A DNA stretch of 64,000 bases, taken from an uncultured Eubacteriales bacterium (GTDB taxonomy: Bacteria > Bacillota > Clostridia > Christensenellales > CAG-138). How positions within the stretch are numbered: the stretch's first letter is position 1; each line of letters starts with the position of its first letter. A model generated the notes under the pieces. It was not told where the DNA came from, searched no databases, and worked only from the letters and a program-made list of their open reading frames with translations. Position numbers and translations under genes: made by a program. The stretch is from contig URFJ01000001.1 of NCBI GenBank assembly GCA_900547135.1, positions 269 to 64,268 of the forward strand. Reading direction: 5' to 3'. Shown here one piece after another: positions 14,000-43,134 of this stretch.

Positions 14000-14407
14000 T
14001 TACCATGCGCTAAGCCAATGCTTTACGGTTTCATCGGCTTCTATAAGCTGCTTATCGTTCCCTCCCGGATTTTTTATAAACAGTACTTTTGTGTCGCTTA
14101 TATGCTTTGAGGCATATTTTAGCCCTGGCGGAATAATAAACAACGATCCCTTTTCAAAAAGGTATTCCTCTTTTTCATCTAAGAGCAAGACCTTACTTGC
14201 CCCGTCCATGACAAAATTGTACTCCGCAGCGTTTATATGTAAATGGGGCCGGTCAGCCGAAAAGAACTTATAATGGCTCAATCCAATTTCAATTCCAGTA
14301 TCATGAATCCATTCCAAATCCTGCGGTTTCTTTAGATTTCCGCACAGGTAAACCCTGTCCGAGGTCTTTAAAGCTTCCCTCACGTCAAATCCCATTATAT
14401 AATTCAT
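14000..14407 (-). CDS. metal-binding cupin-domain protein (135 aa)
   Basis: Cupin motif 1 is HLHINAAEYNFVMDG and motif 2 is GSLFIIPPGLKYASKH. The start is placed at the ATG at 14407, 7 nt after GGAGGG. It overlaps the upstream gene's end by 23 nt. Confidence 0.7.
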   Translation of the reverse strand: MNYIMGFDVREALKTSDRVYLCGNLKKPQDLEWIHDTGIEIGLSHYKFFSADRPHLHINAAEYNFVMDGASKVLLLDEKEEYLFEKGSLFIIPPGLKYASKHISDTKVLFIKNPGGNDKQLIEADETVKHWLSAW

Positions 14408-15560
14408 AATTCTGCCCTCCACGTGCGTTACGCCAATACTCTGACCATTCGCGCAAATTCTTTATCGATGGCCTTTCACAAAGCTTTGGGTTTATTCTAA
14501 TGGAGTTAAAGTTGTTTACAAAGAAGCTGTAATTTACCGGGTCGTCCGTTTGCCAAATTACGAAGCTCCTACGGTTATCTTCATTATCCAGCGATGCTGA
14601 ATACAAATCGATTTTTACATGGTTGAATTCCCTGTATTTATCTAAAAACTCCACGTTGAATATGGCGAACGGGGCGCTGACCTTCATTAGGTAAAAGTGA
14701 AATCTCGCTGGAATTGAATCCCACGTCTGATGATAGATAGAGCTTTTATTGGAAAGCGCATTATAAAGGTTATATATGGCGCTGTAAACTACGCCTGAGG
14801 ATGAGCCTGCCCTATAGTTCGCTACCTTTGTTTCCAGATCAATTAAGTTATATCTTGACGGCTTTGTCAGTATCAGCTCCATGGTAGCCGCAGACTCGCG
14901 CATGATCATTTCCATAGCTTTATTAAGCTTGATATCCTTCATCTGCTCAATATGCCCGCTGTCCCCAATCTCAGGATTTAGAAGTAAATTCCCTGCAAAG
15001 TTTAAAATCCTGATCTTTTGAATGCTTCTATAATATCCATCGCTGATATGCAGTCTGTCGTCTATAGTATGGATATCTTGTATCCCTTTTCTGTCAAGCA
15101 TCAGCAGGTTGTTTTTATGCCTGAGGGTATTATAATGCCTTATACCATTTAGCCAAATCCTTAGCTTGTTATTCATACTCTGTATATCTGACAAATCATA
15201 GTCCAGCAGTGTTACGCCGCTAAAATCAGTTGGTACGTGCGTACCTCTGACTTTACAGATTGCCACTGCCTTTTTGCCTAATACGCCGCTGAATATACCG
15301 GCCTCTACCAAAACGTTGTCCCGAGGTATATAGCCTCTATAATCATCCGTTATAACATTATCATCCGTATTGAAAATAAAAAGTCCGGCGCTGTGCTCCT
15401 TAGCGGCTCTTAATAAATCATCAATGGTGTTTTCACCTAGATGAAACGCTTCACTATCCTTCCAGCAAGTCGTCTCGACTCCAAGGTTATTTAGTATTGC
15501 CTGCATTTTACGCGCGATTTCCAAAGCTTGATTCGAACTTCCTATAAACACCCTTTTCAT
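14385..15560 (-). CDS. TIR-like (PF10137 / CAP12-Pycsar-effector type) domain protein with an uncharacterised ~265-aa C-terminal domain
   Basis: 391 aa from the ATG at 15560. The N-terminus MKRVFIGSSNQALEIA...FIFNTDDN...IPRDNVLVEAGIFSGVLGKKAVAICKV...VPTDFSGV follows the bacterial TIR-like nucleotide-binding pattern. I recognise no motif in the C-terminal part. The segment is AT-rich. Confidence 0.6.
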   Translation of the reverse strand: MKRVFIGSSNQALEIARKMQAILNNLGVETTCWKDSEAFHLGENTIDDLLRAAKEHSAGLFIFNTDDNVITDDYRGYIPRDNVLVEAGIFSGVLGKKAVAICKVRGTHVPTDFSGVTLLDYDLSDIQSMNNKLRIWLNGIRHYNTLRHKNNLLMLDRKGIQDIHTIDDRLHISDGYYRSIQKIRILNFAGNLLLNPEIGDSGHIEQMKDIKLNKAMEMIMRESAATMELILTKPSRYNLIDLETKVANYRAGSSSGVVYSAIYNLYNALSNKSSIYHQTWDSIPARFHFYLMKVSAPFAIFNVEFLDKYREFNHVKIDLYSASLDNEDNRRSFVIWQTDDPVNYSFFVNNFNSIRINPKLCERPSIKNLREWSEYWRNARGGQNYELYNGI

Positions 15561-15733
15561 TTGTTTACCCCCAAAAAACAGCAATGTCATTTATATAATA
15601 CCATATTTTCTACAATTAGTATTGTATTGTACGGTTTATTTGAATACAAGTCCTATTAGGCCCATGTCCGCCCGGCTGTACAAAGGGTTTCATATATGAT
15701 ATTATTGATAAAATCGGGATTGGAGGTCAAACT

Positions 15734-34072: not shown

Positions 34073-35523
34073 ATGTCTGCTTTTGGTGATAAACTCAGAT
34101 TATACATTGATAAATGTGGTGAAAGCATTTACCAGCTTGCAAAGCGGTCAGGTGTTGAACGCACGTCAATACACAAGGCCATGTCGGGTTCAAGAATACT
34201 TAACCAGGCCTGTTTTGACAGGTTAATAGAGCTGCTTAAGCTTACCCCCGCTGAAAAGCAGGATTTGATCAACAGTTATGAGATTGCCAAGCAGGGAGAA
34301 GACGTATATCACCGCCGACGCAAGATGGCCGCTATGCTCAATGGCCTGGCCGCGCTGCCCTCCAAGGAGTTTAACAGCCCTGTAGCCGAATTTAAGGTGA
34401 ATATGGGGGGCCAATCGTTTGACCGTATAGAGCTTATAAAGGGGAAATATGAGTTCTATAACCTGATGCGCACCGCGGTGTTAGAGGAGATATCGGACCA
34501 GCATACGCCGACGGTGTGTACAAATATACGCTTCAACGACCAGTTCATGGCTGACACTACCTCATTAATCTACATGTCCACGGGAGGAAAGCTTACCATC
34601 AAGCATATACTTCGGTTTGCGCGCCACAGCGACTTAGCTTCGGGCAACTACAACATGGATAGGCTGTCGGAAGTGCTCCCCATGGTCCTGTATGTAGGCT
34701 GTGGGTATAAGCCCTATTATTTTTATGGCGATTACGACAGCGCAAACGCCGTTACTACATAATAACCTGTAAGCGTGTTATAGCCGTATCCGCGGACTTA
34801 AATAAGGGCGTCGCTTTCAACGATCCTGAAATAGTCCGTATCTGCCAGGAATCCTTCGATATGGCAATTAAACGCTGTCATCCACTGATCAGCTACCTCA
34901 GCAGCCCCATGGAAGCAATGAACCACCTTAAGGAGTATGAATCGAACCTGGATCAGCCTATATATAAGTTTGAGGCAATCCCATGCTTTGCGCTGTTCTT
35001 CAGCCCGCAGCTGATAAAAAAGAAGATACGTTCTGATGTGCCAAACGGCGGCGAGCTGGCGCGCCTGATGAGCGTGCGCTGTGAAGCCATGCGCGCCTCA
35101 TCCAATATAAACATCATGTTCTTTTCCGAATTTGGCTTAAACCATTTTACAGATACAGGCACGCTTATTAACATGCCATCCGATATGGCCATTCCCTTCA
35201 CAGTCGAAGAGCGGCTTAAGCTGCTCCGTGATCTTAAAAAATCTATTGACAGCGGCGATATTAAGGCGATTGCCGTGAACCCGGACCGTCTTAATATTTC
35301 AAACAGGATATCCATTTACTATACCGAAACCGGAGGGATCCTGTTTTCGGGTTACAACGACGAAGAAGGAAGCTACGTGATCCTTCTTCTAAAGGAGGAG
35401 GGCATCGTAAAAGCCATAAGCGACTTTATGGCTTACCTCCCCCAAAGCGACCTGGTGTTAAACCCTCAGCAGAGCGCCGCGGTAATTGACGGGTGCATCA
35501 AAAGGCTCGAATCAGCGCTATAG
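34073..35523 (+). pseudogene. large XRE-type HTH regulator (~480 aa) split by a frameshift
   Basis: ORF 34073-34762 (HTH: IYQLAKRSGVERTSIHKAMSG) stops at TAA. A different frame is open from about 34745 (YYIITCKRVIAVSADLNKGVAFNDPEIVRICQESFD) into ORF 34861-35523. The flanks are AT-rich. Confidence 0.6.
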
Positions 35524-36038: not shown

Positions 36039-36845
36039 TCAAATGGCACTCTGGATTTCAGGCCGCAGGCTTTTTTCCCGTTCGGCGTCCATGATAAGCT
36101 TGTCCCCGACAAGGGCTATGAACTCTCCATTTGTAGGCTTATCGTTCTTTGAGTAGATGTTGTATCCAAAGAGCTGATTGATGTTTTCGATCTTTCCCCG
36201 TGTCCATGCCACCTCGATTGCGTGGCGTATTGCGCGCTCCACCTTTGATGGTGATGTGTTGAATCGTTTTGCAATCCCTGGATACAGCTCCTTTGTTATC
36301 CTGTTTATAATCTCAGGCGTATAGTAAACCATCCTTATCGCTTCCCTCAGGTAGTGATAACCCTTTATATGGGCGGGAATACCTATCGTAAGGAATACGG
36401 AGGTTATCTTTTCATCCAGCGTGCGTGGCGCAGAGCTGAGTGAACATACCTGGGATTTTCCCGCATAGGAGTTTTCAAGCAGGTCCGTCATCCTCTTGTA
36501 TAGCGTTTCGGGTTCAACCGGCTTGACCATAAAGTATTTTGCCCCAAGTATGCAGGCCCGCCTTACCATATCCTCCTGGCGCATGGCGCTTATCATAATT
36601 ACCATTGGAGGAACCTCTACCAATCCCAGATTTAGCTGCTCAAGTACGCCGAATCCGTCCACACGCGGCATTATCAGTTCCGTTACCAGCGCGTCGTACC
36701 GGTTTGAACGCAGTGCGTTGAGCGCCTCGAAGCCGTCCGCGACACAGTCAATCTGCTGAATGCACTCCTGCGCCGTCAAATAGTCCCGCAACTGTGTCTG
36801 AAAATGAGTATTGCTGTCTGCGATTAAAACACGATATTTTTTCAT
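36039..36845 (-). CDS. spo0A: sporulation master regulator Spo0A homologue with an atypical receiver domain
   Basis: The C-terminal domain is unmistakable ([40 protein letters not shown]). The receiver has ADSN in place of ADDN and [11 protein letters not shown] in place of VLDIIMPHLDG. The start is set at the ATG 8 nt after AGGAGG. Confidence 0.88.
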
Positions 36846-37148
36846 ATTCATTTCCTCCTAAGTATTTTTGTTGTCTTCAGTAAAACCAAGTATCAATCTG
36901 AAGTTTTTAAGGCTTTTTTGTTCCTCGTATGTATTGTATAACAATAAAATCCGCAGCGCTATGTCCTTTAATACAAATTAACGTTTGAATGTATCGTATA
37001 CTTCACGATTATGCACGAATAATGATACGGCTAAAAAAACCTGTTTTTCGTAATAGTCTAAATGCTTGAAAAGTCCTTTTAAATGGCCAATTTTCGAGAT
37101 TTCTTATAGATGGCGCTTGCCAAATTGGATATATAGTCGTATAATTAT

Positions 37149-37452
37149 AACGGCTTCGGGGCGGGGTGAGATTCCCCACCGGCGGTGATGCGGCACTATG
37201 CCGACGAGCCCGCAAGCGACAGTTTGTATACATTTATGCATGCTGCCGCCGAGCCGGTTGGAATCCGGCGCCGACGGTTGCGGCGACGCTTTTGCGGGCC
37301 GTTTGCAACGCATATTATTTGTTTCTAAATGTCTGTTTTTCGCATTTGGGCGTGAAATAAATAATCAACGGCAGGTTTCTGACGGTATTTGCGGGTCAAA
37401 CGCTTCGCGCAGCTGTATATCGCTGTTAAAGTCCGGATGGGAGAGGCGTTAT
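37149..37452 (+). ncRNA. FMN riboswitch (RFN element) with a large internal insertion
   Basis: Conserved blocks are cttcggggcggggtgagattccccaccggcggt, agcccgcaagc, ggttggaatccggcgccgacggt and aaagtccggatgggagagg. The P1 halves are aacggcttc and agaggcgtt. It lies upstream of ribU. Confidence 0.8.
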
Positions 37453-37463
37453 GCTTTTTTTGT

Positions 37464-37494
37464 GCTCCGAATTATGTAATGCGGGGCTTTTTTG
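37464..37494 (+). terminator. possible expression-platform terminator of the FMN riboswitch
   Basis: gctccg...cggggc (one G-U pair) followed by ttttttg. The stem is short, so confidence is low. Confidence 0.35.
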
Positions 37495-37582
37495 TTCCCG
37501 TTATTCAGGCCCCCGCTAAGCGGCGCGCAACAGCGTGTTAAGCCGCTAGGACAGAGGGCAAAAATCGATGGGAGGCTATAAA

Positions 37583-39270: not shown

Positions 39271-42200
39271 ATGTATACGGCGAAGCTTGCCAAGAGTGGA
39301 ATGAAGGGACGGAAGCGGGATACGCGAATACTGCTTATCGTGCTGACACTGTCCTTTATTTTCACCACCATATCCACCATACTCATATCGAGCATGGAAT
39401 ATACCGACGAGTACCAGAAAAAGCAGATCTATGCCGAGTGGCAGGCGGCGCTGTTTAACGCCGACGAACAGTCGGCAGAAGCGGTCAAATCAAGCTTTGA
39501 CACCGTCGGCGTGTCGCGCGTTATTGGTCAGAACCAGACGTTTGGCATAGTCGGCACGATTGACGAAGGCTTCAAGGAGCTTGCCAACCTGTCCCTGGTT
39601 GAAGGCCGGTATCCGGAAGCCCCGGGAGAGGTGATCATTGAAACCAATCAGATAGGCGGCGCCACAAGCTCGCTGAGCGTAGGCGACAGCCTTGTAGCCA
39701 TATTTAAGCTGATAAATGACGACGATACCTCGGGATCTTTTGAATATTTAGAAGTTCCAAGCGCCTATGATGAGACAGCTAAACAAATGCAGGAAAAGCT
39801 GGATTCCGGCTATTACGACGACATAATATGGGAATACGCCCAGCGCCAAGGGTTTGAGTTTAGCCGCGATTCCTATTCATACAAAAATTATTATAATGAC
39901 ATGGTATTATCGCATTACATAATTCAGAACGACCGGTCCACAGACAGGAAGATGTACAATAAGGGCAACGTGGTTATCACCGTTGATACGCAATATATAT
40001 ATTATAGCTGCAAGCTTGACTATCTTCTTGACCCCTCGTCCTATCAAAGGGACATAAAGGAGAAGGGGGCTATTTGCGGCCAGAACTATCAACTTAACAT
40101 GAATCTTACCGTAGTGGGCATAGTTGAAACCTTCTCGGACAGGTGGGATACGGGCGTGCAGTACATGCCGGTATCGTTTGTAACTGAAGAAACGGCTGAC
40201 CAGCTGCTAAACGCGTTTAATGAGTTAAGGCAGGAGGACGCGAGATCGGCTGGATTTGATTACGTGCAGAATACCAACCTATTCATAAAATCCGATTCAA
40301 TGGACGCGATTGCCACATACAACGCGCTTAAGGAAAGCATGCGGGAGATCTACATGTCCCGCGAGGATTCCCCTGAGCTATGGATGGAAGTAGACCATCT
40401 CGATGGCAAGGCAATGATAAAAAAGGATCTATATGATCCGGACAAGCACATTTTAAATACCAGTTACTACTATGGATTTGAAATGTTTGTTCCGTATACC
40501 TTGACTGACTACGAAGTTGACGGGTTTATACATGAAAACATGGTCCTCGAAGACACTGAGTATATAAGTCTTGATCCTGACGACCCGGATAGCGTAAAGG
40601 CTATATATCTCAAGGACTACATAGAAATTAGTCATAACCCTGAAATGGTGGCGACTGCACCCACTACCGCCGAGGATATCAATAATAAGGAACTGTGGTC
40701 GGTGTTTGAGCATGTGGGCCAGATGTACATAATGGAGTCAAGGTACTTTTTCCAAGAGAACTACATAGAGGATTGCAGTTATTATGATGATCCTTATCTG
40801 AGCACGGATTACATGTACGATGGGGATAAGTTTATGACCGTATTTCTGACCGGAGCAGACTATGACCTGTATGTGCCCAAACCTCTTCTGCAAGCCTCAG
40901 ACCAATACGCCTCAACATTGAATATAACCCTGCCTCCGGACCGGTTTTACCCTGGCAAGGCTAGCGAGAGCCTAAGCTGGCTGGACAACGATCCATATGA
41001 AAACGACGTACATGAACTTAGGCTCAACAGGTTCGCAAACCCCAAGGACGCTGTAAAATCCACCATGTCGCTCGCGGTTCAGGGCATCATATTCATAACC
41101 ACCGTTTGCGCCGTGCTTCAGATTTTCCTCACTCAAATCAAGCGCAGGCGCAGAAGGCTCGCAGTTATGAAATGCGTTGGCGCGACAAACGGCCAAATAG
41201 GCGGCATGCTGGCATGGGAAGGAATATACCTGCTGATGATTTCACTGCCGCTGGGCGCTGCACTTGGCTTTGGGCTGTCCTACGGGGGAACGATGCTTAT
41301 GGGATCCATCGAGGGCTCAAGGGCGATCATGTTCTCCGTGGACTGGGAAAGTCTGGCGATAGGTTTCGCGCTGGGCGTAGCCGCACTGTTCTCAGGAATG
41401 CTGGCTCCCATGATCATGGCAATAAAAACGCCTTTGCGCGGCGATCTCAGCTCGTCCGGCAAAAAAAAGCCGATAAAGCAGAGGTTAAAGGCCGAGCCTG
41501 CCGCCGCCCGCCAGACCTTCGCGTCCATATCGCGCAGGCACGCGCAGGCTAATCGTAGCCGCGTAATCCTTTCCTTTGCGCTGTCAACGTTTATTATAAC
41601 CATTATTCTCATAACGCTGTTCTTGGACTACAGGGCGTTTGGCGATTATAACGACAAGGTTGTTGAGGCGAATAAGCCCGAATACCTGGTAGCCGCTCCT
41701 TACGGCCTGTCCGCACGCGGCATTGAAGACGCGCTTAAGAAACTGGATGAGGTGGACGGCCTTAAATCGATCTGCACATATAAGGTTATAGAGGACGTCA
41801 ATACCCTGCATACCGCCCTAAATGAAAACAGCGGGGAGATAAGCCCAATAATTAAAAGGCTCGCCGAGTCAATTCCGGATTCAATGTATTATGGGTTCTT
41901 CTCAGACGGAGCTTCCCTAACATCATATAAATCCAGCGAATCAGGACTGGAGGAGGTACCGCCTGAAGGCCCTGAGCAGGGCAGCTTTATTACCACGGCC
42001 TACGGAATTGACGTGGAAATGCCGATTTATGAACAGCTAACCTGCTCGCTGACCGAGGGCCAGCTGGACAAGGCGGCCTTCCAGAGAGGCGATGAAGTAA
42101 TACTGATGATACCCATGTATAAGGAAGGCAACGGCGGAGGAAGCGTGCCCGACAACATCAGCAAGCTGCCGCCCACGCAGCAGGCGGGCGCGGTGCTGCA

Positions 42201-43134
42201 AAGCGCCAGGGAGATGGCCCTTTCACTGTCTAATAGGACGTCGCGTTATTATGAGGCCGACACATCCGTTAAGGTGGGCGATACGCTTACGCTGTACGGC
42301 AAAAACGTAAGCGTGCCTATGGGCCTGGGAGTTGTTACCACCGACCAGACATCAAAAGATGTAAAAGTGGCCGGAATAATCCGCTACTTCCGGGGTGAGG
42401 AGATATGGCCGTTTTCCGCCGGCGACTCCTTGTATACCCTTATTGGGAGCTACGGCATGATAACCGATGTAAATCCGGACGCTAACAACAGGCTCATGAG
42501 GGTTAACAGGAACTATATGCTGTCGATGAATACATTATACTTTGGAAATGCCAGAGGGCGCACGGAGTTTTATATAAGCGCTGAGGAAGGCGCCACCAGA
42601 AACGACACGGATCTGCCCCTACTAAAGATGTCAAAGGAGCTTAATTTCGCCTATGAAAACTACCGCGAAAGCAACTCGGCGCTGTTTTCAGAGGCCATCA
42701 ACAATGCGCTTATCGTCGGCCTTCTGGGTTTTGCGGCGGTCATGATCGCGCTTGTGATACTGGCAAATACCGTATCGTCCGCCATTGATCAGGAACGCAA
42801 GCGTTTTGGAATACTGCAGTCCATAGGAGTGGAGGAAAAGACGTTTAAAAAGCAGCAGTATATGACCGGCCTGAAGCATGGACTCCTATCGCTAGTAATA
42901 GCAAACTCGGTAATGCTTATAGTCCTCTTCGCCTTCTCGGTGATAAATAACGCCTGGCTTGACATGGGGATTATGGATTATGTGAAGGACCTGGTATTCA
43001 ACACAATGTCGAGATACCCATGGGCGATCCACTTCGCGCTGTGCGGGGCTTACCTCATAGTATTGCTGCTGATACACAGGATTCCTGTCAGAAATGTGCT
43101 TAAATACAGCCCCGTAGAAAATATACGGAGCTGA
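39271..43134 (+). CDS. very large FtsX/MacB-type ABC transporter permease (1287 aa, two FtsX modules)
   Basis: An N-terminal TM is followed by a ~550-aa ectodomain and then FtsX module 1 (KRRRRRLAVMKCVGATNGQIGGMLAWEG). A second TM and a ~350-aa ectodomain follow, then FtsX module 2 (ERKRFGILQSIGVEEKTFKKQ). AGGAGG RBS. Confidence 0.8.
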   Translation: MYTAKLAKSGMKGRKRDTRILLIVLTLSFIFTTISTILISSMEYTDEYQKKQIYAEWQAALFNADEQSAEAVKSSFDTVGVSRVIGQNQTFGIVGTIDEGFKELANLSLVEGRYPEAPGEVIIETNQIGGATSSLSVGDSLVAIFKLINDDDTSGSFEYLEVPSAYDETAKQMQEKLDSGYYDDIIWEYAQRQGFEFSRDSYSYKNYYNDMVLSHYIIQNDRSTDRKMYNKGNVVITVDTQYIYYSCKLDYLLDPSSYQRDIKEKGAICGQNYQLNMNLTVVGIVETFSDRWDTGVQYMPVSFVTEETADQLLNAFNELRQEDARSAGFDYVQNTNLFIKSDSMDAIATYNALKESMREIYMSREDSPELWMEVDHLDGKAMIKKDLYDPDKHILNTSYYYGFEMFVPYTLTDYEVDGFIHENMVLEDTEYISLDPDDPDSVKAIYLKDYIEISHNPEMVATAPTTAEDINNKELWSVFEHVGQMYIMESRYFFQENYIEDCSYYDDPYLSTDYMYDGDKFMTVFLTGADYDLYVPKPLLQASDQYASTLNITLPPDRFYPGKASESLSWLDNDPYENDVHELRLNRFANPKDAVKSTMSLAVQGIIFITTVCAVLQIFLTQIKRRRRRLAVMKCVGATNGQIGGMLAWEGIYLLMISLPLGAALGFGLSYGGTMLMGSIEGSRAIMFSVDWESLAIGFALGVAALFSGMLAPMIMAIKTPLRGDLSSSGKKKPIKQRLKAEPAAARQTFASISRRHAQANRSRVILSFALSTFIITIILITLFLDYRAFGDYNDKVVEANKPEYLVAAPYGLSARGIEDALKKLDEVDGLKSICTYKVIEDVNTLHTALNENSGEISPIIKRLAESIPDSMYYGFFSDGASLTSYKSSESGLEEVPPEGPEQGSFITTAYGIDVEMPIYEQLTCSLTEGQLDKAAFQRGDEVILMIPMYKEGNGGGSVPDNISKLPPTQQAGAVLQSAREMALSLSNRTSRYYEADTSVKVGDTLTLYGKNVSVPMGLGVVTTDQTSKDVKVAGIIRYFRGEEIWPFSAGDSLYTLIGSYGMITDVNPDANNRLMRVNRNYMLSMNTLYFGNARGRTEFYISAEEGATRNDTDLPLLKMSKELNFAYENYRESNSALFSEAINNALIVGLLGFAAVMIALVILANTVSSAIDQERKRFGILQSIGVEEKTFKKQQYMTGLKHGLLSLVIANSVMLIVLFAFSVINNAWLDMGIMDYVKDLVFNTMSRYPWAIHFALCGAYLIVLLLIHRIPVRNVLKYSPVENIRS

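Follow-up and report, generated by a model that had tools for sequence, protein, structure and literature searches.

The DNA analysed here, referred to as the window, is a stretch of 64,000 nucleotides from an uncultured Eubacteriales bacterium of the order Christensenellales (GenBank assembly GCA_900547135.1, contig URFJ01000001.1). Its minus strand carries a gene for the master developmental regulator Spo0A, in whose receiver domain a glutamate occupies the place of the phospho-acceptor aspartate (Table 1). The longest open reading frame (ORF) at the locus extends from 36039 to 36851 and encodes 270 amino acids, an extra in-frame ATG at 36851 adding two residues. Translation more probably begins with the ATG at 36845, because an AGGAGG motif lies 8 nt upstream of it and most of the nearest homologues likewise have the resulting 268 amino acids. 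With this start the residue numbers coincide with those of Bacillus subtilis Spo0A.

Both domains of Spo0A were recognised in the 270-residue frame. Response_reg (PF00072) was located at residues 8-120 with 65.3 bits, over the gathering cut-off, and Spo0A_C (PF08769) at residues 149-252 with 139.6 bits, along the whole of its profile (positions 1-104 of 104). The NCBIfam equivalog model TIGR02875 (spore_0_A), covered from position 2 to 258 of 262, gave 276.1 bits against a cut-off of 200. Searches of the PDB with phmmer matched Spo0A_C to 1fc3 and 1lq1 with E-values of 1e-42 and 1e-41, respectively, and the best solved structures for the other half of the protein were the Spo0A receiver domains 9phz, 1dz3/1qmp and 5wq0. 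The AlphaFold model, computed with 53 homologues as input (mean pLDDT 86.9), gives the receiver a normal (beta-alpha)5 fold (block pLDDT 81-97), and its only low-confidence parts are the inter-domain linker (residues 129-140) and the final seven residues (264-270). When the model was compared by Foldseek with solved structures, its receiver superimposed on phosphorylated Spo0A-N (1qmp) with a TM-score of 0.92-0.93 and its C-terminal domain on the DNA complex 1lq1 with a TM-score of 0.94, both normalised to the target.

The stretch that contains the recognition helix for the 0A box differs from that of B. subtilis by a single residue, K for R, both in the phmmer comparison with the PDB and by BLASTP. 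In alignment A1, 13 of its 15 residues are invariant and the remaining two, I212 and A215, are at least 90% conserved. An earlier examination of this DNA from its letters and open reading frames, the sequence-only reading, had described the effector domain and its recognition helix as fully conserved, a slight overstatement in view of that one exchange, although the other 14 residues agree. The domain architecture, the equivalog score and the recognition helix identify the product as a full-length Spo0A.

The receiver pocket of the window Spo0A

Canonical receivers share five conserved residues, an acidic pair (DD), the acceptor D, a T and a K, and a receiver lacking at least one of them is termed a pseudo-receiver (PMC12632262). 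The chemistry of phosphotransfer depends on the acceptor Asp and on a divalent cation held by two acidic residues, and the active conformation is then stabilised by the Thr/Ser and Lys, which bind the oxygens of the phosphoryl group (PMC12632262). In the window the plus-strand triplets TTC, GCT and CTT, read from the raw sequence, correspond to the codons GAA, AGC and AAG, that is, to Glu56, Ser11 and Lys108. The alignments to the Spo0A receiver chains of the PDB obtained with phmmer place 'liadsn' opposite 'cvaddn' and 'lvtelimp' opposite 'lvldiimp', and the same columns were recovered by BLASTP against B. subtilis Spo0A and in MAFFT alignments of 122 and 201 sequences. In the AlphaFold model Glu56 closes strand beta3 on its C-terminal side, the site expected of the acceptor. 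The only aspartates in the vicinity, D51 and D63, are both conserved in canonical Spo0A and are located off the acceptor position.

Hence, the acceptor Asp is missing and the acidic pair is reduced to D10, with the Thr/Ser and the Lys in place. By the definitions of PMC12632262 and PMC4395418 the domain is a pseudo-receiver of the aspartate-less subset, and the composition of its pocket suggests that it would function without Asp phosphorylation. The sequence-only reading, which was based on an alignment by eye, had proposed the exchanges of Asp56 for Glu and of Asp11 for Ser and the retention of the conserved Lys. The formal alignments agree with it on the three counts: Glu, never Asp, occupies the acceptor position in every one of them, and Ser the second acidic position in all. 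The change that it had listed at position 86 has less to it, for Ser86 is indeed present but is nothing special, Ser being the residue of 92 of 107 canonical relatives.

It is extremely improbable that a sequencing or assembly error, or a misalignment, masks a real Asp. Sequencing error is excluded by the presence of the same residues in a 98%-identical protein, found on 894 contigs from many samples, and by the recurrence of the Glu context in 46 of the 120 nearest clusters. As for misalignment, the structural model gives the same answer as four alignment methods, and the nearby D51 and D63 have their counterparts in canonical Spo0A, away from the acceptor.

Table 1. Position of Spo0A features and of sporulation genes in the 64,000-nt window
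Feature	Position	Strand	Description	Basis
spo0A coding sequence	36039..36845	minus	268 aa; stop codon 36039-36041	ORF list, Pfam, TIGR02875
Receiver (REC) domain	36492..36830	minus	pseudo-receiver of the aspartate-less kind	PF00072, AlphaFold, Foldseek
Spo0A_C domain	36096..36407	minus	DNA binding / transcription activation	PF08769, PDB matches, model superposition
0A-box recognition helix region	36204..36248	minus	15 residues, 14/15 identical to B. subtilis	
Glu56	36678..36680	minus	phospho-acceptor position (Asp56 in B. subtilis); codon GAA	sequence and alignments
Thr55	36681..36683	minus	residue preceding the acceptor, co-varies with it	alignment counts
Asp10 and Ser11	36813..36818	minus	Asp10 kept, Ser11 (36813-36815) at Mg2+ ligand position; codons GAC AGC	
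Ser86	36588..36590	minus	conserved Thr/Ser position; codon AGC	alignment counts
Lys108	36522..36524	minus	conserved pocket lysine, kept; codon AAG	alignment counts
spoIIE-like gene	48560..50311	minus	583 aa; about 11.7 kb upstream of spo0A, same strand	
dpaA, dipicolinate synthase subunit	54477-55250	plus	257 aa	178 and 150 bits, under both cut-offs
dpaB, dipicolinate synthase subunit	55312-55887	plus	clear full-length match	273 and 254 bits, over both cut-offs

Three residue states among related proteins

The distribution of these residues was studied in the best 120 database clusters, whose identity to the window Spo0A ranges from 61 to 98%. The nearest cluster is that of the 98%-identical protein, one of whose contigs has 2.62 Mb (GCA_047031175.1), and its members are named Christensenellales by their sources. 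Glu56 occurs in 46 of the 120 clusters and D11 in none of those 46. Three states can be distinguished: canonical (DDD), with D10-D11...L/M55-D56; D11-less (D[S/G]D), with D10-[S/G]11...C55-D56; and E-type (D[S/G]E), with D10-[S/G/A/H/N/P]11...T55-E56, in which position 11 is never D. Residues were counted in an alignment of 54 E-type, 33 D11-less/D56 and 107 canonical proteins. Position 56 is Glu in all 54 E-type proteins and Asp in all 107 canonical ones. The E-type proteins retain D10 (53/54), S86 (53/54) and K108 (54/54), and many other receiver positions are conserved as well; the lysine is equally constant in the D11-less (33/33) and canonical (107/107) groups. The question raised by the sequence-only reading, whether Glu at this position is lineage-wide, can thus be answered affirmatively within a clade of uncultured Christensenellales.

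The acceptor has been lost in another way in two proteins, one with Ala (locus L018, 4782-5555) and one with Gly (P0096), both with D10 and D11 intact. By their sequences these would represent a further type of Asp-less Spo0A within this broad group, independent of the first.

The residue that precedes the acceptor is tied to it. Glu56 is accompanied by Thr55 in 52 of 54 proteins and by either Thr or Ser in all 54, and in the D11-less group Asp56 is accompanied by Cys55 in 29-30 of 33; the canonical proteins have Leu or Met at this position. Intermediates are rare, namely S-E in P0056 and L033 and T-D in P0057. The exchange of Cys for Thr takes two nucleotide changes, yet the paired states of positions 55 and 56 apparently switched several times.

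Changes between D and E were counted by parsimony on neighbour-joining trees calculated without columns 11, 55 and 56. The count was nine on the full data and at least six in all 100 bootstraps, with the reservations that neighbour joining on 250 columns is a weak and crude method and that recombination of the beta3 segment could also contribute; shuffling of the states inside the D11-less clade gave about 29 changes. A single origin of E56 was rejected, as every bootstrap required at least six changes. Individual proteins can be cited in addition. P0050, a C-D protein, has 87.3% identity to the T-E protein of locus L010 versus 79.5% to its best C-D relative, and the T-E proteins P0040 and P0049 are 6-8 percentage points nearer to C-D proteins than to any T-E protein. 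These results suggest that once D11 is gone, D and E at position 56 may be functionally near-equivalent. Such a near-equivalence would be difficult to understand if the D11-less proteins still depended on phosphorylation of D56.

The gene is under strong purifying selection. The comparison with the sister species yielded 61.7 synonymous and 6.3 non-synonymous differences (pN/pS 0.03), and the five amino acid differences are all conservative except for one in the C-terminal tail. Nor does the E-type receiver decay, as its rate of change relative to the DNA-binding domain does not exceed that of the canonical one: receiver identity in E-type versus canonical pairs is 0.507 versus 0.498 at 80-85% identity of the DNA-binding domain, and 0.563 versus 0.554 at 85-90%. 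This equality at matched divergence implies that the receiver still does something visible to selection.

Gene order, copy number and sporulation genes

The position of spo0A was compared between the three types of locus. A SipL-like gene (PF12673) is located just downstream of spo0A, on the same strand and within 5 kb, in three of seven E-type loci (L012, L031 and L036), in two of four D11-less/D56 loci (L007 and L094) and in 14 of 55 canonical loci with at least 3 kb of downstream sequence. SipL is the clostridial spore-coat morphogenetic protein. The SipL-like neighbours of spo0A have about 475-515 aa and were found at the five loci named, at L098 and at 13 others. E-type genes are therefore found where canonical spo0A is found in related lineages, which would argue for orthology more than for a diverged paralogue. 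LOG and spoIIE form a pair no more than about 10 kb away from spo0A in the window, at the E-type locus L011 and at the D11-less locus L094. The immediate neighbours in the window (an ECF transporter S component, a 488-aa gene with a helix-turn-helix (HTH) motif, NUDIX, a 400-aa protein and RadA) have conserved counterparts only within the species group itself (L004), and beyond it only LOG, spoIIE and a hydrolase recur, loosely.

Adjacency of spoIVB and spo0A, a pairing known from Bacillus and Clostridium, was considered as a test of orthology and dropped. Peptidase_S55 was never upstream of spo0A in ten loci that included all three types, where the upstream genes encode EPSP synthase, ABC components, phosphoglucomutase and similar products. 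The linkage is unusable as a test because the canonical loci examined in this order lack it as well. An apparent case of two spo0A genes on one contig was also discarded: P0018 and P0047 are carried by contigs of 166,744 and 166,739 bp, a coincidence of size between different assemblies, and they share the sipL neighbour.

Copy number was assessed by a scan of a genome collection, which covered at least 79 assemblies and at least 80 spo0A loci among the matches listed. Within these matches a single locus was present in seven of eight E-type metagenome-assembled genomes (MAGs) and in both D11-less MAGs. The eighth, ADurb.Bin248, carries the E-type locus L010 on a contig of 70 kb, and a second contig, of 1.2 kb, carries L030, a fragment of canonical type. 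L030 is identical to P0113, which in other samples was found only on contigs shorter than 3.6 kb; this restriction, set against the 70 kb of the E-type contig, suggests without proving it that L030 is a mis-binned fragment of a rarer organism. The best 120 clusters include 41 canonical ones. The E-type and D11-less genes of three long contigs (2.62, 2.44 and 1.44 Mb) are accompanied by none of these 41, and in particular the 2.62 Mb contig, from the 98%-identical relative, has no canonical Spo0A of at least 61% identity among the 120. A canonical spo0A elsewhere in the genome, which the sequence-only reading had named as the observation that would turn the gene into a diverged paralogue, was thus not encountered in these contigs and MAGs, with the exception of ADurb.Bin248.

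The sequence-only reading had also pointed to other sporulation genes in the window, and this holds in part. The spoIIE-like gene has the architecture expected, with PF07228 SpoIIE (PP2C) at 97 bits and PF19732 SpoIIE_N at 31.6 bits, and dpaB is clear; the spoIIE-like protein reaches only 212 bits against TIGR02865, whose cut-off is 490.8, and dpaA is likewise under its NCBIfam cut-offs. The dpaA product is short: it begins at a TTG, no upstream extension is possible, and it is aligned only from position 89 of the 297 of the profile. The window also contains asd, dapA, an aspartate kinase gene and housekeeping genes. Its 64 kb encode no histidine kinase, Spo0F or Spo0B. Three TGTCGAA sites were counted on both strands of the window, where about 7.6 are expected, so that there is no enrichment in 0A boxes and the count is uninformative; nor is there a 0A-box motif upstream of spo0A. 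The intergenic region between the divergent genes for Spo0A and the ECF-transporter S component (36852-37567, 716 nt) has neither a 0A box nor an Rfam match, and no part of the 64 kb window matches an Rfam family at the gathering thresholds.

Some other genes of the window deserve mention. The gene convergent with spo0A (34073-35523, plus strand) is interrupted near 34755 by a frameshift, which leaves two ORFs of 229 and 220 aa, and its counterpart in the sister species (L004, 11351-12817) encodes 488 aa with an N-terminal HTH. Identity to the relative is only about 69% in the C-terminal half of the split gene, against 92-98% for the genes on either side; either this is a pseudogene or a fast-evolving gene suffered an assembly error. 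Between spo0A and spoIIE a gene on the plus strand (39271-43134) encodes a very large (1287-aa) FtsX-domain membrane protein that is only about 84% identical to that of the sister species, where the neighbours are 90-95% identical, and that corresponds to two genes in the relative L006. Further away, a 401-aa protein (14385-15590, minus strand) has an N-terminal CAP12/Pycsar-effector TIR domain (PF10137, 92 bits) and weak matches, far under the cut-off, to CBASS Cap12 NAD+ hydrolase models. No cyclase gene was recognised among its annotated neighbours, and it is possibly an orphan defence effector. Finally, the assembly GCA_047031175.1 (L004, contig JBKYIQ010000002.1) is labelled Candidatus Gastranaerophilaceae (Melainabacteria), yet its locus shows synteny with the window and codes for Spo0A. 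This assignment is probably erroneous, since it conflicts with the gene content and other members of the same cluster are labelled Christensenellales.

Proposed control of Spo0A without an acceptor aspartate

Activation of Spo0A by phosphorylation of the conserved Asp is said to hold for every endospore former (PMC11210211). The Spo0A proteins studied so far all become active through phosphorylation of Asp56 (PMC11210211, bioRxiv 10.1101/2022.02.07.479450), the one mechanistic trait common to them that the window protein lacks. In Clostridioides difficile each of the Spo0A substitutions D10A, D11A, D56A, S86A and K108A reduces sporulation, and with D56A phosphorylation is lost (bioRxiv 10.1101/2022.02.07.479450). 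Compared with the canonical proteins of B. subtilis, Geobacillus stearothermophilus and C. difficile (1qmp, 1lq1, 1fc3 and 5wq0), the window protein has the same two-domain architecture, length and receiver fold and the same D10, Thr/Ser and K108; its Spo0A_C is about 60% identical to theirs and the recognition helix near-identical. It differs in the Glu and Ser that replace their Asp56 and Asp11, and its gene, like those of the related loci, does not adjoin spoIVB.

Pseudo-receivers are common and are said to have evolved many times within all major families of response regulators (PMC4395418, PMC12632262). Among aspartate-less receivers Glu is the commonest replacement (26%), and the first acidic position is kept in 65%, the second in 29% and the Lys in 70% (PMC4395418). 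The window Spo0A shares the pattern typical of such receivers (PMC4395418, PMC12632262), of which ChxR of Chlamydia, the plant pseudo-response regulators and fungal Rim15p are examples, and it differs from them by its Spo0A_C output, its role as master developmental regulator and the canonical orthologues in sister lineages. Since pseudo-receivers are common and Glu is their most frequent replacement, the kind of change is already known. No aspartate-less receiver of Spo0A type appears in the texts of PMC4395418 and PMC12632262 or in the supplements of the latter, and no Asp-less Spo0A was found in Davidson et al. 2018, in Galperin et al. 2022, in the 2024 review of clostridial sporulation initiation (PMC11210211) or by full-text searches, whose coverage leaves out most subscription journals. 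The novelty would reside in a Spo0A with a pseudo-receiver that is clade-wide, under selection and probably orthologous, which by its sequence challenges the textbook generalisation.

Engineered phosphomimics such as NtrC D54E carry the same substitution at the same position, and it activates some response regulators in the unphosphorylated state (PMC4395418). Unlike them, the glutamate of the window Spo0A is natural, fixed and clade-wide, and it is found together with the loss of D11 and the coupled change at position 55. For Spo0A itself a constitutive allele, sad67, is known. The D[S/G]D proteins of the clade, with C55-D56 and no D11, resemble those atypical response regulators that keep the Asp without the pocket residues, Streptomyces GlnR being an example; the window protein has lost the Asp too.

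The sequence-only reading had regarded the exchange of D for E as a partial phosphomimetic and had concluded that the protein may act independently of a phosphorelay or orphan kinases. This argument is unsupported. In Spo0A, Asp-to-Glu alone is reported to be insufficient, a constitutive protein requiring mutations beyond it, according to Green et al. 1991 as that work is cited in PMC4395418. A stronger argument for independence from phosphorylation, to which the sequence-only reading gave too little weight, would be the loss of D11 in every E-type protein together with the repeated D/E swaps in the D11-less background. The acceptor and one metal ligand being gone, and D11A and D56A each crippling sporulation in C. 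difficile, we infer that E-type Spo0A would not be phosphorylatable by a kinase or a phosphorelay.

The following course of events can be envisaged. The Mg2+-binding Asp11 would have been lost first, and in this background the acceptor Asp56 would have been exchanged for Glu at the same time as Cys55 for Thr. Without acceptor and metal ligand, His-to-Asp phosphotransfer would be impossible. Asp10, Ser86 and Lys108 would hold the carboxylate of Glu56 in the pocket, the most economical arrangement being one with Lys108 and Ser86, and the receiver would be biased to a fixed conformation, probably active-like and dimer-competent, from which the unchanged Spo0A_C could bind 0A boxes. Control would then have shifted to the level of the protein, to a binding partner or to another modification. 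The changes that go with Glu56 (S/G11, T55 and others) may be what enables it to act in this way.

On balance it seems somewhat probable that the gene encodes an orthologous and functional Spo0A, probably the sole copy, whose receiver has turned into a pseudo-receiver and whose control has moved off phosphorylation. Several observations weigh against it. The window spo0A is not beside sipL, so that its own orthology rests on membership of the clade; ADurb.Bin248 has its second, canonical-type fragment; ten Clostridiales genomes have two spo0A genes and one has three (Galperin et al. 2022); and the evidence for a single copy comes from the matches listed in the scan and from individual contigs. 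Spore formation is itself deduced only from spoIIE, dpaAB and sipL in organisms that are uncultured. The weakest step is the fixation of the receiver in an active-like state, which is only a guess given the reported insufficiency of Asp-to-Glu alone, and a locked-off receiver that needs a partner would fit the sequence equally well. The first group of observations, to which the absence of spoIVB beside the window gene can be added, would be explained if the genome also had a canonical, phosphorylatable spo0A that runs sporulation, the E-type copy being an accessory and diverged paralogue. We regard this as quite improbable: E-type genes share the spo0A-sipL order of canonical genes in related lineages, where spoIVB does not adjoin canonical spo0A either, the MAGs listed have one locus with the single exception mentioned, whose fragment looks mis-binned, and the megabase contigs with E-type and D11-less genes carry none of the canonical clusters among the best 120.

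The same pocket can be read in the opposite sense, with Glu56 being no mimic and the receiver inhibiting the DNA-binding domain until a partner, a small ligand or a modification releases it, for which Ser/Thr phosphorylation at Thr55 and methylation of Glu are candidates. Such a state agrees with the reported insufficiency of Asp-to-Glu alone in Spo0A, with the strict association of Thr/Ser55 with Glu56 and with a receiver as constrained as the canonical one, as befits a domain that still receives a signal; partners and other modifications are, besides, known routes of pseudo-receivers according to the reviews (PMC4395418, PMC12632262). It is considered unlikely, with spo0A linked to neither a partner gene nor a kinase gene at any locus examined and with position 11 so variable (S, G, A, H, N, P) that it offers no conserved modification site. 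A somewhat unlikely reading is that the lineage no longer sporulates, phosphorylation control having decayed and Spo0A having been repurposed to regulate other genes. Cultured Christensenellaceae are described as non-spore-forming, which counts in favour of such a change, as do the scores of spoIIE and dpaA below the equivalog cut-offs and the lack, noted above, of 0A-box enrichment and of a 0A box upstream of spo0A. Furthermore, 40 of 102 non-spore-formers, among them 32 of 42 asporogenous Clostridia, possess spo0A (Galperin et al. 2022). Against it stand the intact spoIIE with both Pfam domains, dpaB and dpaA in the window, the SipL-like genes that adjoin E-type spo0A at three loci and the near-invariance of the recognition helix, with a pN/pS of 0.03. 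Moreover, repurposing concerns the regulon and not the mechanism, and it would be compatible with a pseudo-receiver.

If the preferred reading of an orthologous Spo0A controlled off phosphorylation is correct, it may be extended, tentatively and as a possibility short of probable, to a whole gut and rumen clade of Christensenellales that decides on sporulation without His-Asp phosphotransfer to Spo0A, the acceptor, freed by the loss of Asp11, toggling repeatedly between Asp(Cys55) and Glu(Thr55) and the input being of a type other than phosphorylation. The manner in which pseudo-receivers gain phosphorylation-independent function was still called 'largely a mystery' in a 2025 review (PMC12632262), and the natural series DDD, D[S/G]D and D[S/G]E, with its coupled position 55, could be used to dissect it. 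Research on clostridial sporulation has been organised around finding the kinases of Spo0A, and the presence of spo0A in gut MAGs should not by itself be taken as proof of kinase-controlled sporulation. The Spo0A described here would, if the interpretation is true, be the first exception to activation by Asp phosphorylation, and would show that a master developmental switch can be rewired off two-component signalling.

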